Counted from the first letter of the stretch, positions 22,013 through 55,023 are shown. The stretch: 64,000 bases of DNA from Actinomycetota bacterium (GCA_035762085.1 DASTPT010000094.1:6101-70100); one strand, 5' to 3'. The notes: generated from the letters alone by a model not told the origin. Program-made: numbers and translations.

Positions 22013-22083
22013 GCCTCGGTCTCCCCGAACGGCGCCCGAGCGGGTAGGCTCAGCGGTCTGACCGATGTCGACCGGAGGTCCCC

Positions 22084-23766: not shown

Positions 23767-23773
23767 GCCTCCC

Positions 23774-24595
23774 TTACGCGCGCTTCGGGGGGAGCGGGAA
23801 GAACGCGCTCGTGCGACGGATGTACTCGGCGTAGCCGGGCCTGCGCTCGCCGATCGTCTTCTCGAGCATCGCGACGCCCGAGACGCGCACGAGCAGGAAC
23901 GTCATCAGGGCCGGGCCGACGAGGGCCGCCCAGCCCCACGGCGTGGCGAGCCCGATCAGCCCGATCCCCCACCACAGGACGGCGTCGCCGAAGTAGTTCG
24001 GATGCCGCGTATAGCGCCACAGACCCCGGTCCATGACCTTGCCCCGGTTCGCGGGGTCGGCCTTGAACCGCCCGAGCTGGGCGTCCCCCACGGCCTCGAA
24101 CGCAAACCCGATCGCCCAGACCACGGCCCCCAGCCAGTCGAGCGAGCCGAGCGCGTCCGGCGTCTCCCCAGCCCCGGCGGCCTGGACGGGCAGCGAGACC
24201 ACGAGCGCGAGCGCGCCCTGGAGCCAGAAGACCTGGAACAGGCTGATCCACCAATAGCCGGGGCCGTACCGCTCGCGGAAGGCGACGTACCGGTAGTCCT
24301 CGCCCTTGCCACGGTTCCGCCGCCCGATGTGGACGGCGAGCCTGAGCGACCAGATGCCGACGAGCGCGAAGACCAAGAGCCGGCGCTCGAACACCCCGGG
24401 GCCCAGCACGAGCGCCACGATCGCGACCAGCCACATCGCCGGCCCCCACACCACGTCGACGATGCTGACGTTGCGGACCGCGACCGAGACGAGCCACACG
24501 ATCGCCATCGCGACGGCCACGACCGCCGCGGAGACCAGGACGAGACCGATGCCGCTGTCCACGTGGCCACCCTCCGCAGGCAACCTAGCACGCAT
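23774..24595 (-). CDS. DUF1295 / steroid 5-alpha-reductase-like membrane protein
   Basis: Polytopic membrane protein with the characteristic C-terminal YTRHPNYFGD motif. The start is uncertain. Confidence 0.7.
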   Translation of the reverse strand: MRARLPAEGGHVDSGIGLVLVSAAVVAVAMAIVWLVSVAVRNVSIVDVVWGPAMWLVAIVALVLGPGVFERRLLVFALVGIWSLRLAVHIGRRNRGKGEDYRYVAFRERYGPGYWWISLFQVFWLQGALALVVSLPVQAAGAGETPDALGSLDWLGAVVWAIGFAFEAVGDAQLGRFKADPANRGKVMDRGLWRYTRHPNYFGDAVLWWGIGLIGLATPWGWAALVGPALMTFLLVRVSGVAMLEKTIGERRPGYAEYIRRTSAFFPLPPKRA

Positions 24596-24640
24596 AGGTT
24601 CGCCGCCTACGGCTCGAACCGATGCACCTATCCTGGACCC

Positions 24641-25072
24641 ATGGCCCTGTTGCAGGAGACGCTCGAGGTTGCCCGGCCGCTCGACGAGGTGTTCGCCTTC
24701 GTGGGCGACTTCGCGAACACGAAGGACTGGGACCCCGGGGTCTCGGACTCACGGAAGGTCACCGACGGGCCGGTCGGCGTCGGCACCCGGTACGCGGTCG
24801 ACGTCGTGTTCGGGAGCCGGACGCTCCCGATGACCTACGAGGTCACGATCTGGGACCCACCGAACCGCGTGGTCCTGCGCGGCGAGGGCTCGACCGTGAC
24901 GGCGGTGGACGACATCCGCTTCGAGGCGACCGAGCGCGGCACCCGGGTGCGCTACTCGGCCGACCTGCGACTGAAGGGTCTGCTGAAGCTCGCGGAGCCG
25001 TTCATGAAGGGCCGGTTCGAGAAGACGGGGAAGGACGCGATCGCCGGCATGCGCCGGTCGCTCGAGGGCTGA
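24641..25072 (+). CDS. SRPBCC (polyketide cyclase/dehydrase, START-like) domain protein
   Basis: 143 aa from the ATG at 24641 (MALLQETLEVARPLDEVFAFVGDFANTKDWDPGV...), a typical SRPBCC ligand-binding fold. The track ORF from 24002 is an antisense extension. Confidence 0.65.
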   Translation: MALLQETLEVARPLDEVFAFVGDFANTKDWDPGVSDSRKVTDGPVGVGTRYAVDVVFGSRTLPMTYEVTIWDPPNRVVLRGEGSTVTAVDDIRFEATERGTRVRYSADLRLKGLLKLAEPFMKGRFEKTGKDAIAGMRRSLEG

Positions 25073-25076
25073 GCTC

Positions 25077-26282
25077 CTAGACCACCCGCACGCCGTCCTT
25101 CCACACCTGCTCGACGCGGTCCTTCAGCGTCGAGAACTCGAACGGGTCGCCGTCGGCCACCACGACGTCGGCGCGCTTGCCCGGCTCGAGCGTGCCGAGC
25201 TCGTCCTCCAAGCCCATGAGCTGGGCGGCGCTCGAGGTGCCCGCGACGAGCGCCTGCTCGGGCGTGAACCCGTGCGTCGCCATCAGCTCGAGCTCCCGCA
25301 GGTTCGTACCGTGCGGCGCGACCGGGCAGTCCGTGCCCAGGGCGACCTTCACACCGGCCTGCGCGGCGCGCCGGAACGCACCGAGCTCGGGGCGGCCGAG
25401 CGACCGCAGCTTCTCGCGCACCGGCTCCGGGATCTTCGGGTCGTTCGCCAGCTCTTCGGTGGTGTCGCCGGCCGTGAGCGTGGGCACGAGCCACGTCCCG
25501 CGCTCGAGCATGAGCTCGATCGCCTCGTCGTCGAGGAACGTGCCGTGGTCGATCGAGCGGACGCCGGCGCGGACCGCGCGCTTGATCCCCTCGGCGCCGT
25601 GCGCATGGGACATCACCCAGCGGTCCAGGTCGGCCGCCGTCTGGACGATCGAGCGGACCTCGGCCTCGGTGAAGTTGGGCTGGCGCGGGTCGTCGGTCGG
25701 CGAGAGGAAGCCACCGGACGATGCGATCTTGATCACGTCGGCGCCGGCGCGGACCATCTCGCGGACCTTCGCGGCGACGCCCTCGACGCCGTCGCACACG
25801 CCGTCGGGCATCCCCGGATACGACGACCCCCACGCGCCCCGGGCACCGCTCGGAAGCCACGCGTCGCTGTGGCCGCCCGTCATCCCCAGCATGTTCACCG
25901 AGATCTGCATCCGAGGTCCAACGAGGAGTCCCCGCTCGACCGCGGCGCGCATCCCCGCGTCGGCGCCGCTCGCGTCGCGGACCGTCGTGATGCCGAGCGC
26001 GATCGTCCGGCGCAGGTTCTCGGCCACCCGGTAGAAGCGGAGCGAGAACGGCTCGTTCATGATGCGGACCTCGTCGAAGTCCTCGTACGAGAACGCCACG
26101 TGCACGTGGACGTCGAAGAGACCCGGCAGGAGCGCCTTGCCCGAGCAGTCGACCGCGTCGTCGCCCTCGAGCCCGACCCCGATCTCGAGGATCCTCCCGT
26201 CCTCGAGCGCGAGATCCGCCTCTGCGAGCGGGGCGCCCGTCCCGTCGAAGATCCGGCCGCCCGTGAACACCGTCCGTGTCAT
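25077..26282 (-). CDS. metal-dependent amidohydrolase (imidazolonepropionase / Xaa-Pro dipeptidase-like superfamily)
   Basis: 401 aa from MTRTVFTGGRIFDG. HxH-type metal motif (FDVHVHV) and conserved His/Asp ligands downstream. The 848-aa track ORF is chimeric. Confidence 0.8.
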   Translation of the reverse strand: MTRTVFTGGRIFDGTGAPLAEADLALEDGRILEIGVGLEGDDAVDCSGKALLPGLFDVHVHVAFSYEDFDEVRIMNEPFSLRFYRVAENLRRTIALGITTVRDASGADAGMRAAVERGLLVGPRMQISVNMLGMTGGHSDAWLPSGARGAWGSSYPGMPDGVCDGVEGVAAKVREMVRAGADVIKIASSGGFLSPTDDPRQPNFTEAEVRSIVQTAADLDRWVMSHAHGAEGIKRAVRAGVRSIDHGTFLDDEAIELMLERGTWLVPTLTAGDTTEELANDPKIPEPVREKLRSLGRPELGAFRRAAQAGVKVALGTDCPVAPHGTNLRELELMATHGFTPEQALVAGTSSAAQLMGLEDELGTLEPGKRADVVVADGDPFEFSTLKDRVEQVWKDGVRVV

Positions 26283-26375
26283 CGCCCCTCCCCGTTCCTG
26301 CGCGGTCGGCTGCGCGCCGGCCGGCGCGAGCCTACACTCCGCCCCTGATCGCCGTTCGAGATGGGAGATCCGCGC

Positions 26376-27554
26376 ATGGACATCCGGCTGACCCCCGAGG
26401 ACGCAGGGCTGCAGGCGCGCGCCCGCGACTTCTGCGAGCAGGTGCTGATGCCGCTCGAGGACGAGTGCGAGGAGCGCGACGGCCTCACGCCCGAGAGCCT
26501 CGGGCGAGCCAGGGCCCAGGTGCTCGACCACGGCTTCGCGGCGATCAACCACGCGGTCGAGGACGGCGGGCAGGGACTCGACGTCTTCCAGCAGGTGCTC
26601 GTCGAAGAGGAGTGGGGCAAGGCGACCGGGGCCCTGTGGGACATCCCGTGGCGGCCCTCGATCCCGCTCGCGGTCGCGACCGAGGCGCAGAAGGACGAGT
26701 ACCTGCGGCCCGCGTGCCGCGGCGAGCGCCGCGACTGCTACGCGATCACCGAGGAGGGTGCCGGTTCCGACCCGTCGATGGTGCGCACGACGGCCGTCCG
26801 CGACGGCGACGGCTGGGTGCTGAACGGCACGAAGTGGCACGTGACCTCGGGCGACGTCGCCGACTTCCTCCTGGTCCACGCGCACGTGGACGGCGCCCCG
26901 GCGAAGGCAACGGTGTTCATCGTGGACAAGGACCTGCCCGGCGTGCGCGTGGTCCGCACGCCGAAGTACATGCACACGTTCGTGTTCGAGCACCCGATCA
27001 TCGCGCTCGAGGACGTCCGCGTCGGCCCGGACAAGGTCCTCGGCGAGGTCGGGCAGGGGTACGAGCTCACGAAGGACTGGTTCGTCGAGGAGCGGATCAT
27101 GATCGGCGCGCGGACGGTCGGGGCGGCGACCCGCGCGCTCGACCTCTCGCTCGCGTTCGCGTCGGAGCGGGTGCAGTTCGGCGTACCGATCGTCGAGCAC
27201 CAGGCGATCGCGTTCATGCTCGCCGACATGGCCGCCGAGCTCATGACCTCCAAGGCGATGCTCTACCGCGTCGCCTGGCAAGCCTCCCGCGGCGGTACGC
27301 CGCGCAAGGAGGTCCACGCCCTCGCGAGCGCCGTCAAGCTCGTGTGCCCGGAGACCGCGGGCCGGATCGTCGACAGGGCCGTTCAGATCCACGGCGGCCG
27401 TGGCTACATGCGCGAGCAGCCGGTCGAGCGCCTGTACCGGGAGCTTCGCGTGGACCGGATCTGGGAGGGCACCTCCGAGATCCAGCGCATGGTCGTCGCC
27501 AACGAGCTGCGGAAACGCGGCGCCGGCGCCTATACGGGCTGGCCCGGCGCGTAG
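26376..27554 (+). CDS. acyl-CoA dehydrogenase family protein (paralog 1)
   Basis: ACAD motifs CYAITEEGAGSD, LNGTKWHVTS, and C-terminal YRELRVDRIWEGTSEIQR. About 45% identical to the 40142..41320 gene. Confidence 0.85.
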   Translation: MDIRLTPEDAGLQARARDFCEQVLMPLEDECEERDGLTPESLGRARAQVLDHGFAAINHAVEDGGQGLDVFQQVLVEEEWGKATGALWDIPWRPSIPLAVATEAQKDEYLRPACRGERRDCYAITEEGAGSDPSMVRTTAVRDGDGWVLNGTKWHVTSGDVADFLLVHAHVDGAPAKATVFIVDKDLPGVRVVRTPKYMHTFVFEHPIIALEDVRVGPDKVLGEVGQGYELTKDWFVEERIMIGARTVGAATRALDLSLAFASERVQFGVPIVEHQAIAFMLADMAAELMTSKAMLYRVAWQASRGGTPRKEVHALASAVKLVCPETAGRIVDRAVQIHGGRGYMREQPVERLYRELRVDRIWEGTSEIQRMVVANELRKRGAGAYTGWPGA

Positions 27555-27600
27555 GGCGCTTGCCACCGGCGCCGCCCCTCGTCCATGCTCTCGGCGGGGC

Positions 27601-29007
27601 ATGCCGGGGGAACGCATGGGCATCTCGATCGAACGGCGAACGCTCGACGCCGAACGGACCGGCGAGGTTCGGAGTCACCCGCGGGTGGGCGTGATCCTGG
27701 CCGCCGGCCGTTCCAGCCGGCTGGCCGACGTCACCGGCCACGGGTCCAAGGCCGTGCTGCGGGTCGGCGGGATCTCGCTGCTCGAGCGCGCGATCCGCAC
27801 GCTGCTCGCGGCGCGGGTCGAGCGGGTGGTGGTCGTCGTCGGGCACCAGGCCGGGCCGGTGGCGACCGTGGCCCGGCGCTCGGCGCCGGGTCGCGTGCAG
27901 ACCGTGTACGCGGAGGGCTGGGAGCTCGGCAACGGCGTCTCGCTCGCGGCGGCCGAGCCGCTCGTCGCCGAGGAGGAGCTGTTCCTGCTCGTCACGGCCG
28001 ACCACGTCTTCGGCGAGGGCGCGCTCGAGCCGCTCGTGCATGCCGGTCGGCCCGGCGTGCTCGTGGACCACGCGCCCGACGCGGAGGCATGGGCCGAGGG
28101 CACCCGCGTCCGCCTCCACGAGGAGCACGCGGTCGCGTTCTCGAAGGAGCTCGGCGATCCGTCGATCGACTGCGGGGCGTTCCTCCTGCCGCCGGCCGTG
28201 TTCGCGGCGCACCGGCGGGCGCTCGCGAACCACGATGCCTCGCTCGCCGGCGCGGTGACGGGCCTGGCCCGCCACGTCCCGCTCGCCGCCGTGGCGCTGC
28301 CGCCCGGGACGTGGTGGCAGGACGTCGACACACCGCAGGACCTGCGACGGGTCTCGCGCCTGCTGCGCCGCTCGCTCACGAAGGACGCCGACGGTCCGGT
28401 CTCGCGGTACCTCAACCGCCCGGTCTCGACCCGGATCTCGATGGCGCTCGCGCACCTGCCGCTCCACCCCGACGTCGTCTCGGTGATCGCGTGCCTCGTC
28501 GCCCTCGCGGGGGCGTGGGCGCTGTGGGTCGGCCGTGGGGTCGAGGGCGCCCTGCTCGTGCTGCTCGCCTCGATCCTCGACGGCGTCGACGGCGAGATCG
28601 CCCGGCTCCAGGTGCGCGCGAGCCCAGGGGGTGCCCTGCTCGACGGCGTCCTGGACCGCGCCGCGGACGCCGCGGTGATCGCCGGCCTCATGGTGTGGGC
28701 GCTCGAGGACGGCGCCAGCGGCTCGGTCGCGGTCGGCTTGGGTGTCGCCGCGACCACCGGGTCGATGCTCTCGATGGCCACGAAGGACCGGATCGCGGCG
28801 CTCGGCATCCCCCCCGCCCCCGAGCGGTGGATCAGCTTCCTCATGGGCGGGCGCGACGCGCGCCTGCTCGAGATCGCGGTCTGCGCGGCGCTCGACCTGC
28901 CGGTGCTGGCCCTCGTGATCGTGGCGTCGACGTCGCTGCTCAGCCTCGGCGTGCGGCTGCTCCTCACCCGCTCGACGCTGCGCGGTGCCTGGCCCGGGCC
29001 GTCCTGA
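27601..29007 (+). CDS. bifunctional nucleotidyltransferase / CDP-alcohol phosphatidyltransferase (IPCT/DIPPS-like, di-myo-inositol-phosphate synthesis)
   Basis: N-terminal MobA-like NTP-transferase domain (GVILAAGRSSRL). C-terminal multi-TM domain with an exact CDP-OH-P-transferase motif D-G-x2-A-R-x8-G-x3-D-x3-D (DGEIARLQVRASPGGALLDGVLD). The alternative start is 27616. Confidence 0.7.
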   Translation: MPGERMGISIERRTLDAERTGEVRSHPRVGVILAAGRSSRLADVTGHGSKAVLRVGGISLLERAIRTLLAARVERVVVVVGHQAGPVATVARRSAPGRVQTVYAEGWELGNGVSLAAAEPLVAEEELFLLVTADHVFGEGALEPLVHAGRPGVLVDHAPDAEAWAEGTRVRLHEEHAVAFSKELGDPSIDCGAFLLPPAVFAAHRRALANHDASLAGAVTGLARHVPLAAVALPPGTWWQDVDTPQDLRRVSRLLRRSLTKDADGPVSRYLNRPVSTRISMALAHLPLHPDVVSVIACLVALAGAWALWVGRGVEGALLVLLASILDGVDGEIARLQVRASPGGALLDGVLDRAADAAVIAGLMVWALEDGASGSVAVGLGVAATTGSMLSMATKDRIAALGIPPAPERWISFLMGGRDARLLEIAVCAALDLPVLALVIVASTSLLSLGVRLLLTRSTLRGAWPGPS

Positions 29008-29056
29008 TGGCCGTCCTGACCGTGCCCGCACCATCCCGTTCGCAGGGGCGGCTCCG

Positions 29057-30016
29057 ATGAGCGTCGTGGTCGGCCTCGATGTCGGGGGCACGAAGATCCA
29101 GGCGGCGGCGCTCCGAGGCGAGGGGGTGGTGAGCTCGTTCCGCACCCCGACGCCGCTCACCGGCGCTCGCGACGTCCGGCGTGCGCTCGTCGAGGCGCTG
29201 GACGGGGCGCTCGGCGAGGCGGGCGCGGATCGGGGGGCGCTCGACGCGGTCGGGCTGGCGATGCCCGGCGCCGTCGATCGCCAGGCCGGCTCGCTCTGGA
29301 GCGCTCCGAACCTCCCCGGGTTCCAGTCGGCGACGCCGGTGCCGATCGGCCCCTCGCTGTCGAGGGCGCTCGACGGCGTCCCGGTCGCGCTCGGCAACGA
29401 TGCCAGCCTGGCCATGCTCGGCGAGCATCGGCGCGGAGCCGCCCGCGGCTACGGGAACGTGCTCGGCGTCTGGGTCGGGACGGGCGTCGGAGGCGGCCTG
29501 ATCCTGAACGGCGAGCTGTTCGAGGGTCACGGGGCCGCCGGCGAGATCGGCCACATGACCGTCGAGCCGGCCGGGAGGCTGTGCGGGTGCGGCGGACGGG
29601 GGCACCTCGAGTCCTACGCGGGCCGAGGGCGGATGGAGGCACGCGCCCGCGAGCTCGCGAAGAAGGGTCGCCGGACCACGCTGTTCAAGCTCCAGCAGAA
29701 GAAGGGTAAGGATCGCGTGACGAGCGGGGTCTGGCTCGAGGCGATGCGCAAGGGCGACCGCATCGCGAACATGCTCATCGACGAGGCCGTCTGGGCTCTC
29801 GGGCTCGCGCTCTCGTCGGTGCAGAACCTGCTCGACCTGGAGGCGATGGTGATCGGGGGCGGGCTCGGCGATCGGCTCGGGCAGCCCTTCATCGACCGGA
29901 TCGCGGCCGAGATGGCGCCGCTGCTGTTCGTCCCCGGCCGTCCGCCCGTGCCGCTGCCGACCGAGTTCAAGGACCTGTCCGGCGCGGTGGGCGCGGCGGT
30001 GCTCGCCGGCGGCTGA
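29057..30016 (+). CDS. ROK family sugar kinase (glucokinase-like)
   Basis: N-terminal VVGLDVGGTKIQAA ATP-binding motif and the ROK Cys/His zinc motif (HMTVEPAGRLCGCGGRGHLE). Confidence 0.85.
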   Translation: MSVVVGLDVGGTKIQAAALRGEGVVSSFRTPTPLTGARDVRRALVEALDGALGEAGADRGALDAVGLAMPGAVDRQAGSLWSAPNLPGFQSATPVPIGPSLSRALDGVPVALGNDASLAMLGEHRRGAARGYGNVLGVWVGTGVGGGLILNGELFEGHGAAGEIGHMTVEPAGRLCGCGGRGHLESYAGRGRMEARARELAKKGRRTTLFKLQQKKGKDRVTSGVWLEAMRKGDRIANMLIDEAVWALGLALSSVQNLLDLEAMVIGGGLGDRLGQPFIDRIAAEMAPLLFVPGRPPVPLPTEFKDLSGAVGAAVLAGG

Positions 30017-30019
30017 GCC

Positions 30020-30716
30020 CTACGTGCCGTCGAGGCAGCCGAGGACCTCCTCGGGCAGGCCGGGGATCCCGGGGCCGGGGGTGTCCGGACCCCCGCCGCC
30101 CCGGACGAAGTCGTACGGGACGCCCGCCCACCGGCCCGGAAGACCCGGGTAGGACCTCAGCTCCAGGTCGGCGCTGTCGTACTGGAAGGCGATCCAGTCG
30201 GGCGACCCGAAGCCCTCCGTGTCGTACGGCGCGACCGCCACGAGCCCGCGACCGAACCGGCGCGCCTCGATCAGGAACCGGCCCTGGAACCCGGGTTCCC
30301 GCTCGGCGAACAGCTTGATGTACCAGCGCTCGACCACGAGGAGGTATCCCTTGTCGGAGGGCGGCGACTCCGGACCCTCGAAGTACCGCATGTCGACGAC
30401 CGTGAGCGGTCCCTTCACGCCGGTCGCCCGCCGCACGATCCCGAGCGGCTGCAGGAACGCGGGCGAGCCGTCCTTCGGCGTGACCCAGCCGTTGACGCAG
30501 TCCGGCGTCGCCTCGCCGCGCGTAGGGGGCGGCTCCTCCGGCAACGCCGGCGGGGTGACGGAGGGCGTGACGCTCGAGGCCTCGGTCGGGGTCACGGGCG
30601 GGCGCGGCGTCGCCGTGGTCGGCCGATCGCCGTCCCCTCCTCCGTCGCACGCTGCGACCGTCGCGCCGAGCGCGAGGGCGACGACGATCGAGAGCGGCTG
30701 GAACCTACGCGATTGC
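30020..30716 (-). CDS. hypothetical secreted lipoprotein
   Basis: Putative GTG start giving a signal peptide plus lipobox (LALGATVAAC), a Pro/Thr-rich linker, then a globular domain. No recognisable family. The track ORF extends to 31045. Confidence 0.45.
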
Positions 30717-30785
30717 ACCGGATCTCCTGCGGGACGGGCCCCCGCAGGATACCGCCCGACCTTCCCTTGATAGCGTGATGCCCCC

Positions 30786-32273
30786 ATGGACGGCCCGCGC
30801 GACCACGCCCAGCGTCCCCACGGCCATCGGAACCCCGGGGTCGAGGCCGCCCCGACGTACCGGCGCCTGGAGCACGACCGCTCGCCGGGCCCGACGTTCT
30901 CGCGCCGGGGGTTCCTGGCCACGTCCGGGCTCGCGCTCGCCGGCGCGACGCTGTACGCGTGCACGGGCGGGGGGCGCAAGGGGCCGGTGGCCAGCCCCTC
31001 GGCGACGGTGTCCGTGGCGGCGACCCAGACGCGCTGGCCGATCAAGCGCGTGATCTACGTGATGCTCGAGAACCGGTCGTTCGACAACCTGTACGGGCGC
31101 TTCCCGGGCGCGAACGGCGCGAGGGTCGGGGTGAAGTTCGGACAGGAGGTGCCGCTCCTGGACTGCCCTCACTGGCTGCCCGGCGACATCCCGCACGACC
31201 GCGCGGCGCACCTCAACAACGTGAACGGCGGCGCCTACGACGGGTTCGCGATCGGGCAGTTCGGCGACCCGTGGGCGTACACGCAGTTCGACGGGCGGAT
31301 GGTCCCGAACTACTGGCGGTGGGCCCGCGACTACGTGCTGTGCGACAACTTCTTCGCCTCGGTCGGCGGTCCCTCCTACCCGAACCACTTCTTCTTCGTC
31401 GCGGGACAGTCCGGCGGCGTGCTCGACAACCCCGAGAACATCGAGGTGCGGTTCGACGACGGGAACGAGCGGTTCAAGTCGTGGGGCTGCGACGCCGTCG
31501 GCGAGAACGTGTTCGTGCTCGTCAAGGACGAGCAGGGGAACCTCGCGAAGCACGATACGTGCTTCAACTTCCGCACCGTGCCCGAGCAGCTCGAGGAGAT
31601 CGGCGTCTCGTGGGCGTACTACTCGGCCGGCAAGTACCAGACGGGCTACTTCTGGAACGCGCTGAACGGGATCTCGAACGTGTACCACACCGACCTGTGG
31701 CGCCCCGAACGGATCCGCGGCGTCGACAAGCTCGTCGACGACATCGAGGCGGGGCGCCTGCCCTCGGTCGCCTGGGTGACGCCGCGGTTCGAGCTCTCGG
31801 ACCACCCGCCGGAGAGCACGTGCTTCGCGCACGACTGGCTGACCGACGTCGTGAACGCGGTGATGAAGAGCGACGGCTGGGAGCACACCGCGTTGTTCGT
31901 CACGTGGGACGAGTGGGGAGGCTTCTACGACCACGTCCCGCCGCCCGAGATCGACGACGTCGGGCTCGGCTTCCGGGTGCCGACGCTCGTGATCAGCCCG
32001 TACGCGAAGAAGGGGTACGTCGACGACGCCGAGGGCGAGTTCTCGAGCCCGCTGAAGTTCATCGAGGACAACTGGGGACTGCCGTACCTCACCCCCCGGA
32101 TCGAGCGCACCCACAACTTCGAGCACGTCTTCGACTTCGACCGGGACCCTCGCACGGACGCCGAGCCCCTGCGCAAGCACGGCGGGTGTTACGGCACGCC
32201 GTGGGAGTTCCCCGGGGAGAACTATCCGGGCTGGCCGGCCGAGACCGAGCCCGACCCCAGCCACTTCGTCTGA
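30786..32273 (+). CDS. phosphoesterase family protein (phospholipase C / acid phosphatase AcpA-like), Tat-secreted
   Basis: Twin-arginine signal (SRRGFLATSGLALAGA). Phosphoesterase family conserved blocks (VMLENRSFDNLYG, GPSYPNHFFF, TWDEWGGFYDHV). Confidence 0.85.
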   Translation: MDGPRDHAQRPHGHRNPGVEAAPTYRRLEHDRSPGPTFSRRGFLATSGLALAGATLYACTGGGRKGPVASPSATVSVAATQTRWPIKRVIYVMLENRSFDNLYGRFPGANGARVGVKFGQEVPLLDCPHWLPGDIPHDRAAHLNNVNGGAYDGFAIGQFGDPWAYTQFDGRMVPNYWRWARDYVLCDNFFASVGGPSYPNHFFFVAGQSGGVLDNPENIEVRFDDGNERFKSWGCDAVGENVFVLVKDEQGNLAKHDTCFNFRTVPEQLEEIGVSWAYYSAGKYQTGYFWNALNGISNVYHTDLWRPERIRGVDKLVDDIEAGRLPSVAWVTPRFELSDHPPESTCFAHDWLTDVVNAVMKSDGWEHTALFVTWDEWGGFYDHVPPPEIDDVGLGFRVPTLVISPYAKKGYVDDAEGEFSSPLKFIEDNWGLPYLTPRIERTHNFEHVFDFDRDPRTDAEPLRKHGGCYGTPWEFPGENYPGWPAETEPDPSHFV

Positions 32274-32336
32274 CGCGCGATGCCGCGGGGGGCTTATCAC
32301 GCGTGGCCCACCCTCCTACACTCCCGCTCCGTGGAG

Positions 32337-35110
32337 ATGCGCAAGACGGTCTCGGTGCTGTTCGCCGATGTCACGGGCTCGACCTCCCTGGGCGAGCAGC
32401 TCGATCCCGAGTCCCTGCGCGCCGTGATGTCTCGCTACTTCGATGAGATGCGCCTGGTGATCGAGCGCCACGGCGGAACCGTCGAGAAGTTCATCGGCGA
32501 TGCGGTGATGGCGGTCTTCGGCGTGCCCGTCCTCCACGAGGACGACGCGCTCCGGGCGGTCAGGGCGGCGTGGGAGATGCGTGAGGCCCTCGCAGGGCTC
32601 AACGTCGAGCTCGGACGCGAGTGGGGCGCCACGCTGCGGATCAGGACGGGCGTGAACACCGGCGAGGTGGTGGCGGGAGACCCGGCGCGTTCCGAGACCC
32701 TCGTGAGCGGCGACGCGGTCAATGTTGCGGCTCGGTTCGAGCAGGCCGCGGAGCCCGGCGAGATCCTGATCGGGGAGGAGACCCATCGGCTCGTCCGCGA
32801 CGAGGTCACGGTCGAAGCCGTGGGGCCCTCGAGCTGAAGGGGAAGACGTCGGCCGTGTCCGCCTTCCGCGTGGTGGACGTGACCCGTGGAGCCCCCGGGC
32901 TCGCCCGGAGGCTCGACTCACCCCTGGTGGGCAGAGCGGAGGAGCTCGAGCGGCTCCGGCACGCCCTCGCCGATGCCGTGGCGCGCAGCACATGCCGCCT
33001 GGTGACGGTGGTCGGCGACGCCGGGATCGGCAAGACACGGCTGGTCGGCGAACTCGTCTCGACCGTCGACGGCGCCACGCGCACGCTGCGCGGGCGCTGC
33101 CTCCCGTACGGAGAGGGGATCACGTTCTGGCCGATCGCAGAGATCGTCAGGGAGGCGGCGGGCATCTTCGAGACGGACCCTCCCGACGTCGCAGGGTCGC
33201 GGATCCGGGACATCGTCGTCCAGAGCCGCGAGGAGGCTCTGGACGACATCGTGGATCCGGTCCTCGCGATCGCCGGAGCGGCCGAGGGCGCCGGCGATCT
33301 GCAGCAGACCTTCTGGGCCGTCCGACGGTTCCTCGAGTCCCTGGCCGGCGGGGGCGCGCTCATCGTGATCGTCGAGGACATCCACTGGGCGGAGCCCACG
33401 CTCCTCGACCTGCTCCAGTACGTCGCGGGGTTCAGCCATGGCTACCCCCTGCTCCTGTTGTGCACGGCGCGACCGGAGATCCGCGAGCTCAGGCCCGAGC
33501 CGATCGACGGTGCCGAGCTCGTGGTCCTTCAGCCGCTCAGCTAGCGCGAGAGCGACAGGTTGACCGCCAACCTGGGTCGGATCCCACCTCCAGACGCTGC
33601 TCCGGAAGGACCTGATCAGGCCGGACCGTTCCGGCTTCGCCGACGAGGATGCGTTCGCCTTCGGACACATCCTGATCCGCGACGCCGCGTACGGGTCGTT
33701 GGCCAAGCGCGAGCGGGCCGACCTGCACGAGCGGTTCGCGTCGTGGCTCGAGAACAAGGCCGGTGAACGGATCGCGGAGTTCGAGGAGATCGCCGGCTAT
33801 CACCTCGCGGAGGCGCACCGCTACCGCGCGGAGCTCGGTCCCATCGACGAGACCGCCAGGAGCGTCGCCGAGCGGGCGGCCGGGTACCTCTCGTCCGCGG
33901 GGCGGCGAGCCCTGGCTCGGTGGGACGTCGCCGCCGCCGCGAACCTCCTCTCGAGATCCGTCGAGCTCCTCCCGTCCCACGACGAGCGTCGCGTGTCGAT
34001 CCTGCCCGACCTCGGCCTCGCGCTCGCCCAGTTCGACCTCCACGCCGCCGACGAGGTGCTCGCCGAGGCCGTCGCGTCGGCCCATCGGATCGGTGCTCTC
34101 GGTATCGAGGGACGCGCCGCCGTACGACGCATCTTCGTGCGGCTGCACATCGACCCCGAGGAGGACCAACGAGCCTCGCTCGAGACGGCGGAGCGCTACG
34201 CGAGCCTGTTCGAGGCGCGGCGGGACGACCGGGGGGTCGCCGAGGCGAGGAATGCCGTCGGCACGATCCTCTTCTGGCAGGGCCAGATGAAGCTCGCCGC
34301 GGAGAGCCTCCAGCTGGCGGTGGACCACGCCCGGCGTGCCGGCGATCGTCGACAGGAGGCAGACAGTCTGCGCTGGCTCGCGCTCGTGATCCTGGAGGGC
34401 CCGACGCCCGTCGACGAAGGCCTGCGGCGCCTCGCGGACGTCCTCGATCGCCATCGCGGCGATCGACGGGTCCGGATCGACGTCGATCGGGTGCGAGCCC
34501 AGCTCGAGGCGATGCGAGGACGATCGGGGGAGGCCAGGCGTCTGATCGCCCGTGTCGAACACCTGGTCGGCGAGCTGAACGACCCCGTGACCCTCGGCGC
34601 AGTGCTCCGTCACGCCGGTCAGGTGGAGATGCTCGCCGGCGATGCCGAAGCGGCCGAGGCGGAGCTGCGCTCGGCGTACGACATCTACGACCGGCTGCGC
34701 GACACGGGACATCTGGCGAGCGTCGCACCGGATCTGGGCGACGCGTTGTACCGGCAGGGTCGGTTCGACGAGGCGTCGCACCTCGCGGAGGTGGGCGAAC
34801 GGAGCGTGACGCCCGGCGACCTCGATGCCGAGGTTCGGTGGCGGCAGCTCCGCGCCAAGCTCTGGGCCCGGACGGGTCGGGCCGAGGAGGGCGTGGCCCT
34901 CGCCGCGGACGCGGTCCGACTGGTTGCCGGCACGGAGTGCGACGACCTTCACGCCTCGCCCTCGTCGCGCTCGGGGAGACGCTCCGACTGGCCGGACACG
35001 GGTCGCAGGCCGAGACGTCGCTCCACGATGCGCTGTCCCTCTACCGGCGGAAGGGGAACGTGGCGGCCGCCACGAGGCTGATGGCGTCCATCGAGCGATC
35101 TGGATCCTGA
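32337..35110 (+). pseudogene. class III adenylate/guanylate cyclase - STAND/AAA ATPase - TPR regulator, disrupted by at least four frameshifts
   Basis: A continuous domain order is spread over abutting ORFs in different frames. Cyclase domain 32337..32837 (frame 0: VLFADVTGST, KFIGDAVMAVFG). P-loop NTPase 32821..33544 (frame 2: VVGDAGIGKTRL). Helical/TPR region 33564..about 34960 (frame 0). Tail to 35110 (frame 2). No start codons or RBS sit at the frame junctions. Confidence 0.65.
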
Positions 35111-35134
35111 TCGGCGTCGGGCTCGGCGCCGATC
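35109..35134. terminator. hairpin between convergent genes (possible bidirectional terminator)
   Basis: Inverted repeat GATCGGCG-(10 nt)-CGCCGATC lying between the pseudogene stop and the stop of the acyl-CoA synthetase on the opposite strand. Confidence 0.35.
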
Positions 35135-37249
35135 TCAGGAACCGCGCGGGATCACGAGCGCGTCGACCGCAACGCACCCCTGTGGCCAGCAGACCACGGG
35201 GTTCGCGTCCAGCGCCTCGAGGTGATCGCCCAGCTCGTACGCGAGCCACGAGAGGCCGACGACCGCGCGGGCGAGCGCACCCACGTCCGCGGCCGGTGAG
35301 CCACGCACGCCGTCCAGCAGCGGGCGGATCCGGAGGCGTTCGATCATCCGGCGCGCCCGCACCTCGTCGAGGGGCGGGAGCGCGAGGCGCCGGTCGCGCA
35401 GGACCTCGACGAGCACGCCGCCGGCCGCGACGAGCACGAGCGGCCCGAACTCCGGATCGCGCACGATCCCGAGCGCGACCTCCACGCCCCTCGGCGCCAT
35501 CTTCGAGACCACGACCTCGGGACCGAGCAGCCGCTCGAGGTCCGAGTACGCGTCCTCGAGCGACGTCGAGTCGTCGATGCCGAGGCGCACCCCGCCGACG
35601 TCGGACTTGTGCTGCACCCCGGGGACCGCCGTCTTCACCGCCACGGCGAACCCCAGGCGCTGGGCCGCCGACATCGCGTCCTCGAGCGTCGCGGCCGCGA
35701 CGGCGTCCACCGTCGGAACCCCGTAGTCGGCCAAGAGCGCCAGCCCGTCGAGCTCGCCGAGCGGCACGCCGCTCGTCAGCCGCTCTCGCCATCGGACGCG
35801 TACGTCGTCCGACACGGGGGACGAGCCCCCGACCGGCGGCAGCGCCCGGTGGTCCCGGTGGTCGAACAGGTGCCGGAACGCGGCCAGGCCGGTCAGCGTC
35901 CCCTCGAGCGCCGGCGCGCCGGCCGCGTGGATCCTCGCCACGTCCGTGCGATCGATGCCGCCGGCGAAGTTGCTCAACATCGCCATCGGCTTGCCCGTCT
36001 CGGGCCACACGTCGAGGAAGCAGGAGAAATAGCCTTCCTCGTCGGCGTCGTCGGTCACCAGGTCGACCGCGAACGCGAGCGCCGCGACGTTCGGGTCCTG
36101 CACGAGCGCGCGGAGCGAGCCCGTGATCACCTCGCCGGCGTCGCGCCCGGTCCCCCAGAAGTCGAGCGGGTTGATCGGCAGCAGGCCCTCGTCGAGGAGC
36201 GCGTCGAGCTTCGCGGTGGCCTCGGGCCCGAGGGTCGCGAGCGGCACACCTACGGCCGCGGCCGCGTCGACCATCATCGCCCGCTCGCCGCCCGAGTCGT
36301 GGGCGGTCGCGAGCGCGCCCGGCCCCGCGCGACGTCCCGCGACGAACAGCGCGAGCGTGTCGGCCATCTCGTCGAGCGACTCGACGCGGTGCACCCCCTC
36401 GGCCTCGAACAGGGCCTCGTAGGCGCCGTCCTCACCCGCGAGCGCGCCGGAGTGCGCCGTCACCATCTCGCGCGTGAACGCCTCGCGTCCGACCTTCAGG
36501 ACCACGACCGGCACGTCGCGCTCGTGCGCCGAACGCATCGCGGCGCGGAAGCCGGCCGGGTCACGGACCGTCTCGATGAACAGTCCGATCGCCTCCGTGC
36601 TTTCCAGCCCGAGCGCGTACGCCATGTAGTCCGACGTCGTGGTCACGAACTCCTGTCCGGACGAGACGAGCAGGTTGAACCGCAGATCACGGTCGTTGTG
36701 CATGAACGCCGCGAATGCCGACCCCGAGTGGCTCACGAACGTGATGCCGCCGCTCGGCAGCTCGGCCGGCTCCTCCCACCCGGTCGCGCGCAGGCGGCGC
36801 TCCACGTTCACGAACCCCATGCAGTTGCCGCCGCAGATCGCCATGCCCGCCTCCCGCGCGACCTGGGCCAGGCGCTCGGTAAGGGGCGGCGCGTCGGGGC
36901 GGGGTTCCTCGAACCCGCTCGCGTAGATCACCGCCGAGCCGACCCCTGCGTCGGCGCACGCGCGCAGCGTCTCCTCGAGCTGAGCGTTCGCGAGCGCGAT
37001 CACCGCCAGGTCCACCGGCTCGGGCACCTCGTCGATCGAGCCGTAGCACCGGTGCCCCAACAACTCGTCGTACCGCGGGTTCACCGGGTATACCGGCCCC
37101 TCGAACCGCCCGAGCTCGACCAGCTCGCGCAGCGTCTCGTGGCCGACCGTGCCCTCCCGCCCACTCGCGCCGATGATCGCGACCGAACGCGCCTCGAGCA
37201 TCCGCTCGAGCGCGGATCGGCCGTGCGGGTCCGCCTGCGGTGCCGTCAC
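35135..37249 (-). CDS. acetyl-CoA synthetase (ADP-forming) / NDP-forming acyl-CoA synthetase, fused alpha-beta (paralog 1)
   Basis: 704 aa. N-terminal CoA-binding and succinyl-CoA-synthetase-like domains (SVAIIGASGREG, catalytic His region SHSGSAF) and a C-terminal ATP-grasp domain. Confidence 0.85.
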   Translation of the reverse strand: MTAPQADPHGRSALERMLEARSVAIIGASGREGTVGHETLRELVELGRFEGPVYPVNPRYDELLGHRCYGSIDEVPEPVDLAVIALANAQLEETLRACADAGVGSAVIYASGFEEPRPDAPPLTERLAQVAREAGMAICGGNCMGFVNVERRLRATGWEEPAELPSGGITFVSHSGSAFAAFMHNDRDLRFNLLVSSGQEFVTTTSDYMAYALGLESTEAIGLFIETVRDPAGFRAAMRSAHERDVPVVVLKVGREAFTREMVTAHSGALAGEDGAYEALFEAEGVHRVESLDEMADTLALFVAGRRAGPGALATAHDSGGERAMMVDAAAAVGVPLATLGPEATAKLDALLDEGLLPINPLDFWGTGRDAGEVITGSLRALVQDPNVAALAFAVDLVTDDADEEGYFSCFLDVWPETGKPMAMLSNFAGGIDRTDVARIHAAGAPALEGTLTGLAAFRHLFDHRDHRALPPVGGSSPVSDDVRVRWRERLTSGVPLGELDGLALLADYGVPTVDAVAAATLEDAMSAAQRLGFAVAVKTAVPGVQHKSDVGGVRLGIDDSTSLEDAYSDLERLLGPEVVVSKMAPRGVEVALGIVRDPEFGPLVLVAAGGVLVEVLRDRRLALPPLDEVRARRMIERLRIRPLLDGVRGSPAADVGALARAVVGLSWLAYELGDHLEALDANPVVCWPQGCVAVDALVIPRGS

Positions 37250-37259
37250 GTGCCCGAGG

Positions 37260-38879
37260 CTACTTCCTCTTCGGCAGGGCCTTGTCCTTCACGGCCATGC
37301 GGAACGCCTGCCAGCCGGGGATGCCGTTCACGCCGCCGCCTCCGTGCGTGGCGCACGAGCCGTGGTACAGCCCCCTGATCGGGGTGCGGAAGTCCGCGTA
37401 TCCGGGCGCCGGACGCATGTGGAACAGCTGGTCCACCGCGAGCTCGCCGTGGAAGATGTTCCCGCCGATCAGGCCGAGCTCCTGCTCCATCTCGTACGGC
37501 CCGATGATCTGCCGGTCGATGACGGCCGACTTGAAGTTCGGCGCGAGGGTGTTGTACTCCTCGATCGCGCGGTCGGCGTACGCCTCGAGCTCCTCGGTGT
37601 GCGGCTCGGCGCTCCACTCGTGCGGGCACCACTGGCTGTACATCGAGAAGATGTGGATCCCCTCGGGACACAGCTTCTTGTCGAGCGTCGTCGGGATGAC
37701 GCCGTCGACGAAGGGCCGCGTCGCCGCCTTCTTCTCCATGTGCGCGTCCTGGAACGCGCGCTCCGCGTAGTCCGTCGAGAAACACAGCTCGACCGACCCG
37801 GTGTGGTGGTCCTGCATCTCCTTGCCCGGATCGGCCGTGAAGTCCGGCAGCTCCGAGAGCGCGACGTTGATCTTCACGACGCCGGAGCGGCTCCGCCAGC
37901 GCTCGATGTCCCAGACGAAGTCGGCCGGCAGGTCGTACCGGTCGATGAGGTCGAGGAACGCGGTCCTCGGGTGGATCGCCGAAACGCCGATCGGCGCGCG
38001 CAGCTCCTCACCGTTCTCGAGCGCCACGCCGACGAACCGTCCGTTGCGCACGAGGATCTTCGAGACCTTCGCGTTCGTGCGGATCTCGCAGCCGAACGAC
38101 TCGGCCGATCGGCGGATCGAGTCCGACACGGCGCCCATGCCGCCCTGCTGGAACCCCCACGACCCGAGGTGGCCGTCGCCGACGTCGCCGATCGAGTGGT
38201 GGAGCATCACGTAGGCGGTGCCCGCCTCGTCCGGCCCGGCCCACGTCCCGATCACGCCGTTCACCGCGAGCATGCCCTTGATCGGGTCGGACTCGAACCA
38301 CTCGTCGAGCAGGTCGGTGACGCTCATCGTGAACAGCTTCGTGACGCTGCCCACGCCCCGGACACCGAGCTTGCGCATCTTCCATGCCGTCTCGACGGTC
38401 GACAGCAGGTCGCCGAGCGCCATCGAGCCCATCTTCGGCGGCACCCGCAGCAGCAGCGGCCCGAGGACGTCGGCGACGCCCTTCAGCCACTCCTCCCACT
38501 TCGGGAGTATCTCGGCGTCCTTCTTCGAGAACTGCGCGATCGACTCGTAGGACTTCGCGGCGTCGTCCGCGTAGACCTTGATCGAGCGCCCGTCCGGGAA
38601 CGCCTGGTAGTACGGCCCGAACGGCGTGACGTCGTAGCCGAACCGTTTGAGCTGCAGCTCGTTGATGATCGTCGGCGGCATCAGCGACATCACGTACGAG
38701 TAGGTCGTGACCTGAATCTCGGGGTGGTCGGGGAACGGCGCGCTGGTGTCGGCCGCGCCGCCGGTCTTGTGACGCGCCTCGAGCACGACGGCCCGGGCGC
38801 CGGCCCTCGCGAAGTAGGCGCCCGCCGTGAGCCCGTTGTGCCCGCCGCCGATGATGATCGCGTCGTAGACGTTCGTCAT
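37260..38879 (-). CDS. FAD-dependent oxidoreductase of the phytoene-desaturase / amine-oxidase superfamily (CrtI-like)
   Basis: 539 aa. N-terminal Rossmann motif YDAIIIGGGHNGLTAGAYFARAG...VLE, with the size and layout of COG1233 flavoproteins. Confidence 0.8.
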   Translation of the reverse strand: MTNVYDAIIIGGGHNGLTAGAYFARAGARAVVLEARHKTGGAADTSAPFPDHPEIQVTTYSYVMSLMPPTIINELQLKRFGYDVTPFGPYYQAFPDGRSIKVYADDAAKSYESIAQFSKKDAEILPKWEEWLKGVADVLGPLLLRVPPKMGSMALGDLLSTVETAWKMRKLGVRGVGSVTKLFTMSVTDLLDEWFESDPIKGMLAVNGVIGTWAGPDEAGTAYVMLHHSIGDVGDGHLGSWGFQQGGMGAVSDSIRRSAESFGCEIRTNAKVSKILVRNGRFVGVALENGEELRAPIGVSAIHPRTAFLDLIDRYDLPADFVWDIERWRSRSGVVKINVALSELPDFTADPGKEMQDHHTGSVELCFSTDYAERAFQDAHMEKKAATRPFVDGVIPTTLDKKLCPEGIHIFSMYSQWCPHEWSAEPHTEELEAYADRAIEEYNTLAPNFKSAVIDRQIIGPYEMEQELGLIGGNIFHGELAVDQLFHMRPAPGYADFRTPIRGLYHGSCATHGGGGVNGIPGWQAFRMAVKDKALPKRK

Positions 38880-43387: not shown

Positions 43388-45486
43388 GCCGAGGCCCGGG
43401 CCTCGGCGAGGGCATCGACCGCGACCGCCCCGCGCTCCGCGACGAGGAGCGGGTTCGCCTCGAGCGAGGTCAGCCGGTCGCGGAGGTCATGCGCTGCGCG
43501 CGCGATGCCCTCGACCACCCTCGCCACGGCGCGGACGTCGTGCTCGTCGGCGTCGAGGCCGCACCGCTCGGCCTGCGACCGTACGTACGCGAGCGCCTGC
43601 GCCGGCGTGAGGGGCGCGGCGACGAACGTGGCCGCGCCGGCCTCGGCGAGCGCGCCACCTGGCCGGATCGTGATCGAGGCGCCGAAGTGCTCGTCGACCA
43701 CGGCGCCGACGAGCACCTCGTGTCCGTGCGCCATCCGCTGGACGAGCACCTTCGGCCGGCGGGCGCCGGCGCGCCTGGCTGCCTGCAGGACCTCGGCGGC
43801 GGCGACCTCGACGTCGGTCGGGTTCGCCAGCCCCAGCCGCACCCCGCCGAGCTTCGCCTTGTGCGGGATCTCGGCCGCGAGCGCCTTCACGGCCACCGGG
43901 AACCCGAGGCGCCTCGCGGCCGCCGCCGCGGTCTCGGGCGAGGCCACCGTCGCCTCCTTCGGCCGGGCGACGCCGTAGAGCTGGAGCAGCTTCGCACCCC
44001 GCTCCTCGTCGAGCGGGCCGGACCGTCCGCGGAGCAGGCGCAGCGCGGCCGCGCGGCTCGGGTGCGGGCCCAGCTCGGGGATCGAGCGTCGGCGGGCGGT
44101 CTGCAGCTCGACGAGCGCGCGGATCGCGCCGGTCGCGGCGTGGTGGCCCTGCAGGAACGGCAGCCGCTCGGCGCGGGTCCACGTCTTCGCGCGCGGGATG
44201 TACGCGAGCGGGCTCATCGCGACCGAGGCGAACGCCACGCCGGTCTGGCGCTGGAGCGCACGGACCCGCTCCAGCAGGTGCTCTGCCCAGACGACCTCGT
44301 TCTCCAGACGCGGCGGGAACGCGTCGAACGCCACGAACCCCACCGACGGGTCGGTCGCGAGCGCCTCGAGCGCGCCCTCGAACATGTCGACCTCGACCGC
44401 GGCCTGGCCGGTGACGTCGAGCGGGTTGTTCTGTGAGGCGAAGTGAGGCAGCGCCCGCCGCAGCCGCCCCTTCGTCGATGCCGCGAACTCGGGAAGCTCG
44501 AGCCCCCGCGCGCCGGCCGCCTCGGCGAACAGCGTGCATGCGCCGCCGGACTGCAGCGCCGCCGCCACGCCGGTCGAGCGCAGACGGCGGTGGTGCGACA
44601 GGAGCACGGCGGCCTCGAACATCGTCACCGGGTCCTCGACCAGGATCGCGCCGTGGCCGCGGAGCCAGGCGTCGCGGAGCGCCGTGTTCCCGGCGAGCGC
44701 CCCCGTGTGCGCGACGATCGAGCGCCGCGCCGCCTCGCTGCGACCCTCGGGCGCGCACACGAGGATCGGCTTGCGGGCTCTCCGCAGGGCTTCGAGGCCG
44801 CGCTCGATGCCCTCGACGTCGCGCATCGTCTCGATGTACGTGGTCACGAGCTTCGTGTGCGGGTCCTCGGCGGCCCACGCGAACATGTCGCCGAGACCGA
44901 TCACCGCCTCGTTCCCGACCCCGAGGATGATCCGAAGCCCGACGCCCCGATCCGAGGCCATCTGGTTCATCGTCCACGCCACCGTGCCCGACTGACTGAT
45001 CACGCTGATGCCGCCGGGGACGGGCTCGGGCGGCGGGGTGGTGCCGTACGGCGCCACCTTCTCGACGTAGTTGACGTAGCCCTCGACGTTCGGCCCGAGC
45101 ACGGGCAGGCGGTGCTCGAGCGCCTTGGCCCGCAGCTCGTCCTGGAGCGCACGGCCCTCCTCGCCCGCCTCGGCGAAGCCGGAGGAGACCACCATGACGC
45201 CCCGCACGCCGGCCGCCGCGACCTCGTCGAGCATCCGCACGACGACGCGCGCCGGCACGACGAAGATCAGCAGATCGACGCCCCTCGGCAGCTCGGCGAC
45301 CGTGGACAGGCACGCCCGCCCCCATACCTGCTCGTACTTCGGGTTGACGGGATACAGCTCGCCCGTGAACCCGACGTGGCGGAGCGAGCGCTCGATCTCG
45401 GGGGCCCACGAGTCGGGCGACTCGGAGGCGCCGACGATGGCGATCGAGCGCGGGGCGACGACCGGCCGCAGGTCGAACCGCTTCAC
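43384..45486 (-). CDS. acetyl-CoA synthetase (ADP-forming) / NDP-forming acyl-CoA synthetase, fused alpha-beta (paralog 2)
   Basis: About 700 aa from the GTG (VKRFDLRPVVAPRSIAIVGASESP), which abuts the enoyl-CoA hydratase stop codon (45483-45485). Domains are CoA-binding, ligase-CoA and ATP-grasp. The track ORF to 46065 is extended. Confidence 0.8.
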   Translation of the reverse strand: MKRFDLRPVVAPRSIAIVGASESPDSWAPEIERSLRHVGFTGELYPVNPKYEQVWGRACLSTVAELPRGVDLLIFVVPARVVVRMLDEVAAAGVRGVMVVSSGFAEAGEEGRALQDELRAKALEHRLPVLGPNVEGYVNYVEKVAPYGTTPPPEPVPGGISVISQSGTVAWTMNQMASDRGVGLRIILGVGNEAVIGLGDMFAWAAEDPHTKLVTTYIETMRDVEGIERGLEALRRARKPILVCAPEGRSEAARRSIVAHTGALAGNTALRDAWLRGHGAILVEDPVTMFEAAVLLSHHRRLRSTGVAAALQSGGACTLFAEAAGARGLELPEFAASTKGRLRRALPHFASQNNPLDVTGQAAVEVDMFEGALEALATDPSVGFVAFDAFPPRLENEVVWAEHLLERVRALQRQTGVAFASVAMSPLAYIPRAKTWTRAERLPFLQGHHAATGAIRALVELQTARRRSIPELGPHPSRAAALRLLRGRSGPLDEERGAKLLQLYGVARPKEATVASPETAAAAARRLGFPVAVKALAAEIPHKAKLGGVRLGLANPTDVEVAAAEVLQAARRAGARRPKVLVQRMAHGHEVLVGAVVDEHFGASITIRPGGALAEAGAATFVAAPLTPAQALAYVRSQAERCGLDADEHDVRAVARVVEGIARAAHDLRDRLTSLEANPLLVAERGAVAVDALAEARASA

Positions 45487-53771: not shown

Positions 53772-54065
53772 GATGGCTGGGTGATCACGTTCATCGTCGT
53801 CCTGCTCCTGCTCGCCGCGATCTTCGGCGTGCTCGGCGCGGTCCTGAAGATCGCGCTCGCGCTCGTCCTGGCGATCGCGCTCACCGTCGCGGTCCTCGCG
53901 TGGGGCGGGTGGCTCTGGCTGAAGCACCGGGTCAGAGCGCTGGACCGAGAGCTGGACCGCGAGCGAGAGCTGGAGGAGCGGCGACGGCGAGCGATCGACG
54001 TCCGGCGCGTCCCGAACGAAGCCGAGCGCGCAGAGCCCCTCGAGCTCCCCGGCGACGCGCCCTAG
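53772..54065 (+). CDS. small hypothetical membrane protein
   Basis: GTG start. One or two TM helices (VITFIVVLLLLAAIFGVLGAVLKIALALVLAIALTVAVLAWGGWLWL), then a charged Arg/Glu-rich tail. Third-position GC bias is strong. Confidence 0.4.
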   Translation, partial: DGWVITFIVVLLLLAAIFGVLGAVLKIALALVLAIALTVAVLAWGGWLWLKHRVRALDRELDRERELEERRRRAIDVRRVPNEAERAEPLELPGDAP

Positions 54066-54936: not shown

Positions 54937-55023
54937 GGCCCCATCCTCCCAGACGGTGGAACCGCGCGGCCCATGAGAACGTCGTGCAAGGGATGGACGC
55001 CGACGGCCGCACACGGCACCATG

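Follow-up and report, generated by a model that had tools for sequence, protein, structure and literature searches.

A probable nucleotide cyclase/STAND ATPase/TPR pseudogene in a likely lineage-specific insert of an Actinomycetota genome

The gene at positions 32331 to 35110 (+) of the DNA analyzed here (a stretch of 64,000 nt from an Actinomycetota bacterium, hereafter the window) is a pseudogene derived from a family of ~1029-aa proteins, and it does not have the status of a working member of that family. Its reading frame is broken at four places, and we consider it very probable that these breaks reflect genuine decay more than a patch of sequencing errors. A preliminary description of the region had left both readings standing, a real pseudogene or a cluster of indel errors; an in-frame TAG, a 314-nt deletion that occurs in none of 70 homologs, and clean flanks favor the former and speak against the latter.

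The window has a G+C content of approximately 72%, and long spurious ORFs are abundant in every frame of such DNA. Given this G+C richness, we based our calls on third-position GC (GC3) phase, homology, and domain models and set ORF length aside; for the window as a whole, we adopted a log-odds gene tiling, since a plain frame scan was too noisy and antisense frames share the GC3 phase. Three-frame translation and Pfam models recover the domain order Guanylate_cyc (PF00211), AAA_16 (PF13191), and helical/TPR_12 across abutting frames 0, 2, 0, and 2 of 32331–35110 (+). The GC3 phase flips on one strand at ~32820 and ~33570, and the individual gene pieces either have no start codon near the onset of coding signal or lose that signal 54 codons ahead of the stop (log-odds tiling). 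Searches by tblastn with intact homologs return four collinear segments: 32331–32846 (frame 0), 32828–33574 (frame 2), 33576–34955 (frame 0), and 34958–35107 (frame 2). The succession of cyclase, P-loop NTPase, and helical/TPR parts over abutting frames, as originally proposed, is thus borne out by Pfam, translation, GC3, and tblastn alike. No paralog of the pseudogene was found elsewhere in the window, and an Rfam scan of the whole window yielded zero RNA families.

The first segment (32331–32828, +, frame 0) holds the catalytic domain of a class III nucleotide cyclase (PF00211, E = 8e-25, covering positions 6 to 165 of the 183 in the profile) and is 76 to 78% identical to homologs. The ancestral gene likely started at GTG 32331, as judged from homologous N termini of the form VE[VL]RKTV, with ATG 32337 being the less likely start; the coordinates (32337–35110) and frame order given previously hold, apart from this likely upstream start. 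The second segment (32828–33541, +, frame 2) comprises the end of the cyclase (LELKGK) and the STAND P-loop ATPase (AAA_16, E = 9e-23; tblastn to residues 167 to 413 of the homolog P0001), with Walker A (GDAGIGKT) and Walker B (IVIVED) preserved in translation. The helical region and TPR repeats make up the third segment (33576–34955, +, frame 0), which matches P0001 residues 519 to 978 over 460 aa at 66% identity with zero gaps (tblastn) and contains a TPR_12 match (E = 7e-9). The fourth (34958–35110, +, frame 2) takes in the final TPR-like helices and closes at the original stop, TGA 35108–35110, matching P0001 residues 980 to 1029 by tblastn and giving a weak TPR_7 match. Six surviving motifs are unbroken in translation, namely FADVTGST, KFIGDAVMAVFG, VNVAAR, LKGK, GDAGIGKT, and IVIVED; of these, FADVTGST and KFIGDAVMAVFG are the metal-binding Asp motifs of the cyclase domain.

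When the sequence was conceptually repaired and searched against 5.8 billion proteins, thousands of relatives were retrieved, the best of which are ~1029-aa Actinomycetota "class 3 adenylate cyclase/TPR repeat" proteins (e.g., P0001, P0002, and P0026). The best local segments are 58 to 68% identical to these, and overall identity to P0001 is 66%; each of the best local alignments covers either 45% or 55% of the query and no more, showing that homology breaks in mid-protein. Members of this family share the domain order of the window gene, and their homology runs collinearly over all four segments. The window copy differs from them in its four lesions, in its 106 missing codons, and in a genomic context unlike that of any homolog examined: the cyclase, the AAA_16 domain with its Walker motifs, and the helical/TPR part are present, whereas a 107-residue stretch with the motif EGNPLF and an uninterrupted frame are not. 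We sought a close ortholog in the 5.8 billion proteins, in GTDB species genomes (via the neighboring gene), and in JGI metagenome contigs; the nearest sequence is 66% identical and lies in another context. There appears to be no experimental work on any member of the family, and solved structures for it are confined to cyclase-domain relatives, such as CyaB (3r5g), with none beyond that domain.

A comparison with orthologs, called for in the preliminary description, was carried out with 70 homologs, whose alignment together with tblastn places all four lesions to the base (the window sequence being that of one assembly). The first is a 1-nt deletion in a C run at 32826–32828 (+), presumably from CCCC to CCC, where GTG GGG CCC is followed by CTC GAG CTG AAG. 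Beyond it, frame 0 meets a TGA at 32835–32837; putting one C back yields VGPLELKGK, in which the proline is shared by 62 of the 70 homologs and LKGK by all 70. The longest product from the original start is consequently a 168-aa cyclase fragment without the invariant LKGK strand, and we infer that this fragment would be inactive. The second lesion is an in-frame TAG at 33542–33544 (+), a nonsense substitution after which homology resumes in the same frame (RESDRLTANL). Among the 70 homologs, the corresponding column is occupied by glutamate in 46, aspartate in 7, and glutamine in 6; most simply, then, the codon would have arisen as GAG to TAG.

The third lesion is the junction of an internal deletion of ~314 nt (106 codons, 3n+2) at 33575 (+), recognized by alignment and tblastn, which moves the frame from 2 to 0. 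Between the L of ANL and the S of SHLQ lie exactly 107 residues in 70 of 70 homologs, versus one in the window; P0001 residues 414 to 518 have no tblastn counterpart in the window, and the match to the NCBIfam model TIGR03903 skips from profile position 681 to 808 at this point. At the junction, AACCTG is followed by a single G and then by GTCGGATCC, and only chance-level repeats flank the deleted stretch. What was lost is the region of the EGNPLF (GxP-type) motif and the ensuing helical/winged-helix-like part of the STAND module. The fourth lesion, a further 1-nt deletion, leaves a two-base codon remnant (TC) at 34956–34957 (+) and shifts the frame from 0 to 2: the match to P0001 residue 978 is complete at 34955, that to residue 980 begins at 34958, and the distance to the LRLA motif agrees with that in homologs only after one base is restored. 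It probably changed GCC CTC to GCC TC within a C run (34954–34957). C runs, the site of both 1-nt deletions, are also prone to sequencing errors.

The total is thus three frame changes and one nonsense codon, where at least four frameshifts had been reported. The shifts previously placed near 32830 and 34960 fall at the two C runs, the latter having rightly been tied to a short C homopolymer; the one assigned to 33544–33564 belongs instead at 33575, where it marks the ~314-nt deletion. Similarly, an ORF of about 920 aa had been expected from repair of the frame, and conceptual repair does give 922 aa, but 106 codons are missing from this product and the intact length, as in homologs, is ~1029 aa.

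The sequence surrounding the pseudogene is in good order, as had been stated of the neighboring genes. In the log-odds tiling, some 55 other genes of the window have coherent coding frames that begin and end at proper start and stop codons, and Pfam domains are fully covered in all nine full-length neighbors tested. The closest related locus, L002, aligns to the flanks at 87% nucleotide identity in single segments (11.4 kb upstream and 2.3 kb downstream); across these 13.7 kb there is no net frameshift, gaps in coding sequence being locally compensated or multiples of 3. These data bear directly on the proposition that the organism carries an intact copy, the breaks being homopolymer indels, a miscalled base, and a collapsed stretch in the assembly, a reading that we hold to be highly unlikely. 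It draws on the position of both 1-nt deletions in C runs and on split genes in related metagenome-assembled genomes of the same clade (L010, L015, L043, L052, and L069), as would be expected of error-prone long-read assemblies. However, the G-to-T substitution that creates the TAG differs from a homopolymer error, and repeat collapse cannot yield a 314-nt deletion without flanking repeats. Net frameshifts number zero both in the flanks relative to L002 and among the ~55 window genes, and that all errors of a 64-kb window should lie inside one 2.8-kb gene is very unlikely (for two random indels, ~0.2%, an estimate obtained as (2.8/64)^2). Because the TAG substitution and the 314-nt deletion lie outside the kinds of change that homopolymer errors produce, resequencing of the C runs alone cannot restore an intact gene: it is dead even if both 1-nt deletions are errors, and these, too, are probably biological rather than read errors.

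Two further alternatives accept the breaks as real but would retain a function. Under gene fission, the fragments would still give rise to individual proteins that retain some function or have gained another, an outcome that we regard as quite improbable. A cyclase ORF of 168 or 185 aa (from 32331 or 32280 to 32837) retains the original start and most catalytic motifs, and the helical/TPR piece remains a long open frame of 460 aa (TTG 33699 to 35081). Yet the cyclase ORF stops ahead of the LKGK strand found in 70 of 70 homologs and covers only profile positions 6 to 165 of 183, the TPR ORF carries an out-of-frame, Arg-rich tail, and the downstream pieces have neither a start codon at the onset of coding signal nor a promoter-like site detectable by pattern scan. 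Nor does a split layout occur in any homolog from the searches: the best matches listed are single proteins of 887 to 1374 aa (mostly ~1030 aa) with AAA_16 and usually the cyclase. Programmed recoding, by which ribosomal frameshifting and stop read-through would give a full-length protein, can point to the placement of two shifts in short C runs and to nothing else; it needs two +1 shifts, read-through of the TAG, and another shift across a junction from which 106 conserved codons are gone. Slippery heptamers or stimulatory elements are not evident, and the best-matching homologs all use one frame. The missing codons in effect already refute recoding, and we give it virtually no chance. With the 168-aa fragment from the original start lacking the LKGK strand, no functional cyclase/STAND protein would be made from the gene.

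The pseudogene resides in a block that is missing from the closest relatives. Using the upstream 495-aa neighbor as an anchor, we compared 80 related loci, the nearest of which belong to metagenome-assembled genomes of uncultured soil Actinomycetota (anchor protein identity of 91% aa in L002 and 81 to 83% in L003, L004, and L006). By blastn, L002 is collinear with window positions 20836–32275 and 35145–37432, with 10 nt between the two, and L003, L004, and L006 are organized alike. The intervening 2869 nt (32276–35144) contain the pseudogene as their sole gene, preceded by 55 nt and followed by a hairpin. The upstream neighbor (30786–32273, +; 495 aa, GC3 of 0.97), which we read as a member of the phosphoesterase/phospholipase-C family, is intact, with full-length single-segment matches, as is the convergent downstream neighbor (35135–37249, −; 704 aa), which we read as an acyl-CoA synthetase-like (ADP-forming) protein (single-segment tblastn match over residues 1 to 702; 87% identical in L002). 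The hairpin (35101–35146) is GC rich, lies between the stop codons of the pseudogene and of the convergent synthetase-like gene, and has a ViennaRNA energy of −32.0 kcal/mol on the plus strand and −25.0 on the minus strand; it is possibly a terminator without a U tract. Pattern scans detected no canonical terminator or promoter-like site, and searches of the block edges for target duplications and terminal inverted repeats found only chance-level repeats and no mobile-element signature.

The phosphoesterase and synthetase-like genes are adjacent in L002, L003, L004, and L006 and at over 30 loci that are more distant (10 to 70 nt apart in the closest relatives), and they were found beside cyclase homologs in 0 of 81 loci. 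Since the flanking genes are otherwise adjacent, the 2.87-kb block appears as a lineage-specific insertion: the adjacency would be ancestral and the cyclase gene gained in this lineage, with polarity assigned by parsimony only, over repeated clean loss elsewhere. What has been lost would then be an accessory gene and not a conserved regulator; the preliminary description had missed this insertion. The same junction carries different cargo in other relatives. In L005, it harbors a ROK regulator, an aminotransferase, a peptide ABC transporter operon, and an M20 peptidase; in L013 and L017, it harbors a giant BTAD-Ser/Thr kinase-nSTAND1 protein, and L023 begins alike by sequence (and is probably the same). 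Such differences mark the site as variable across the clade. That the junction might be a clade-wide hot spot, repeatedly gaining and losing very large STAND-type signaling genes without a recognizable mobile-element signature, is a bolder proposal to which we attach only a small probability. If it were true, the pseudogene would capture one moment at which STAND genes of the conflict or sensor type are rapidly turning over in uncultured soil Actinomycetota.

Most likely, a ~1030-aa accessory signaling gene encoding a cyclase, an AAA_16 STAND NTPase, and a helical/TPR sensor arrived between the two convergent conserved genes. Selection on the inserted gene would then have lapsed, and erosion would have followed through four independent lesions: two single-C deletions, a nonsense substitution, and an out-of-frame deletion of 314 nt. 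The intact state of the remaining key motifs and the presence of only four lesions in 2.8 kb suggest that inactivation was recent and that the pseudogene is fairly young. In STAND NTPases, the repeat region gates the effector through nucleotide-dependent oligomerization. By analogy, the intact ancestor most likely acted as a STAND switch whose TPR region sensed a ligand or protein and in which nucleotide-dependent oligomerization of the ATPase would have joined cyclase domains into an active dimer.

In its architecture, the window gene invites comparison with several known systems. The Mclx proteins (Rv0386, Rv1358, and Rv2488c) combine an N-terminal class III cyclase homology domain, an AAA/NB-ARC ATPase, and a C-terminal LuxR-type HTH and are nearly exclusive to Mycobacterium; among the M. 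tuberculosis complex genomes that were surveyed, 51% have at least one truncated mclx copy, with frameshift indels being common (PMC4452763). Mclx and the window gene are alike in the N-terminal cyclase homology domain and central AAA/NB-ARC module, as well as in that both have been pseudogenized, but Mclx proteins end in a LuxR HTH, whereas the window gene and its intact homologs end in TPR. No GerE/LuxR HTH match was obtained in any piece of the window gene or in the intact P0001, P0002, and P0026, which removes the basis for calling it a regulator of the Rv0386/Rv1358 type in the strict sense. In addition to frameshift indels of the Mclx kind, the window gene has a nonsense substitution and has lost a long internal stretch. 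Rv1120c, by comparison, is a small stand-alone cyclase without STAND or TPR modules. It is reported to be a pseudogene in both M. tuberculosis and M. bovis, whereas M. avium has a cyclase that corresponds to it (PMC2447327). Both it and the window gene are class III cyclase genes that have died in an actinobacterial lineage, Rv1120c having its M. avium counterpart and the window gene no close ortholog that we could find. With STAND proteins of the MalT/AfsR/NB-ARC type, the window family shares a P-loop NTPase with Walker A and B motifs, a helical GxP-type region (EGNPLF in homologs), and a TPR sensor (P0001 also gives a weak NB-ARC match); its effector is a nucleotide cyclase, in contrast to the DNA-binding or death domain of other STAND proteins, and the GxP region is deleted in the window copy.

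We also entertained an anti-phage role of the Pycsar type. Several PycC models of PADLOC recognize P0001 (best E = 5e-21), but only through its generic cyclase domain (residues 4 to 175); PADLOC defense models gave no match on its ATPase or TPR parts, and a Pycsar effector with a cyclic-nucleotide-binding domain is absent both from the one-gene inserted block and from the listed genes around P0001, whose called neighbors carry PQQ_2 and MASE1/PAS/histidine-kinase domains. With generic cyclase similarity only and no effector partner, we rejected this reading.

For annotation, the region is best entered as one pseudogene instead of an "adenylate cyclase" or a set of three or four hypothetical proteins, and it should be left out of the cAMP-signaling repertoire of the organism. 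It is an ordinary pseudogene of a known protein family, of little importance beyond annotation. It adds one further case to the known propensity of cyclase/STAND accessory genes for gain and pseudogenization in Actinomycetota (PMC4452763) and serves as a worked example that clustered frame breaks in one gene are not automatically sequencing trouble: the kinds of lesions and the state of the flanks decide.

Two compositional features of the pseudogene were also considered. It deviates from the family at 7.3% of near-invariant columns, against a family median of 0.7%, an excess that is suggestive only, as the sequence is a family outlier (66% identical to its nearest relative) and three equally divergent intact homologs score as high or higher; we rejected it as proof of relaxed selection for this reason. 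Its GC3 of 0.87 to 0.91, which is typical of the family, is slightly lower than the 0.94 to 0.97 of its neighbors, and this, too, was rejected as a sign of decay, given that the intact P0001 is offset equally from its own neighbors.

The junction between the phosphoesterase-like gene and the 704-aa synthetase-like gene is occupied in other relatives by cargo different from that of the window. One related locus (L005) carries a ROK regulator, an aminotransferase, a peptide ABC transporter operon, and an M20 peptidase at this site (L005:11019-20419), and two others encode a giant protein with BTAD, Ser/Thr kinase, and nSTAND1 domains, as assigned by Pfam (L013:7867-13882 and L017:11387-17876). 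At a fourth locus, the ORF at the junction (L023:11456-16656) starts with the N-terminal sequence of these giant proteins. The L017 protein is split: its kinase domain follows the Pfam profile only as far as position 212 of 263, and its nSTAND1 match does not begin until position 74 of 379. This copy may be broken or, alternatively, the L017 assembly may be in error.

The synthetase-like gene of the window ends in ...VIPRGS* (35135-35150), versus ...VITRR* in L002, a locus with 87% nucleotide identity to the window (L002:11482-11500). This difference falls precisely where the inserted block ends on its right side, and the insertion may have replaced the final few codons of the gene. A second, distant paralogue of the synthetase-like gene (30% identity) lies 6 kb downstream (43414-45480, minus strand).

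In P0041, an otherwise intact homologue of the cyclase-STAND-TPR pseudogene, the alignment reveals an aberrant Arg/Trp-rich tail at the C terminus. The tail begins at the residue that aligns with lesion 4 in the pseudogene (the 1-nt deletion at 34956-34957), as if P0041 were also frameshifted close to its 3′ end. In five related genome bins whose names start with MFD (L010, L015, L043, L052, and L069), conserved synthetase-like or phosphoesterase genes are recovered in several tblastn segments, a pattern that points to frameshifts in these assemblies, whether errors or mutations; unlike these segmented genes, the window flanks are clean.

Elsewhere in the window, ARAGORN calls an unusually long (88 nt) tRNA-Trp (27678-27765, plus strand) that overlaps the beginning of a coding-signal segment (27676-28980). 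Rfam, at its gathering threshold, finds no tRNA at this site, and the call is probably a false positive. Finally, a 154-aa stretch (54065-54526, minus strand) matches the profile for FAD-dependent oxidoreductases (DAO) only over its final 59 of 353 positions (295-353), at the C-terminal end. The place expected for the N-terminal portion is occupied by an unrelated gene for a DUF3054 membrane protein (54532-55014, minus strand), and the DAO-like stretch looks like a second gene remnant within the window.
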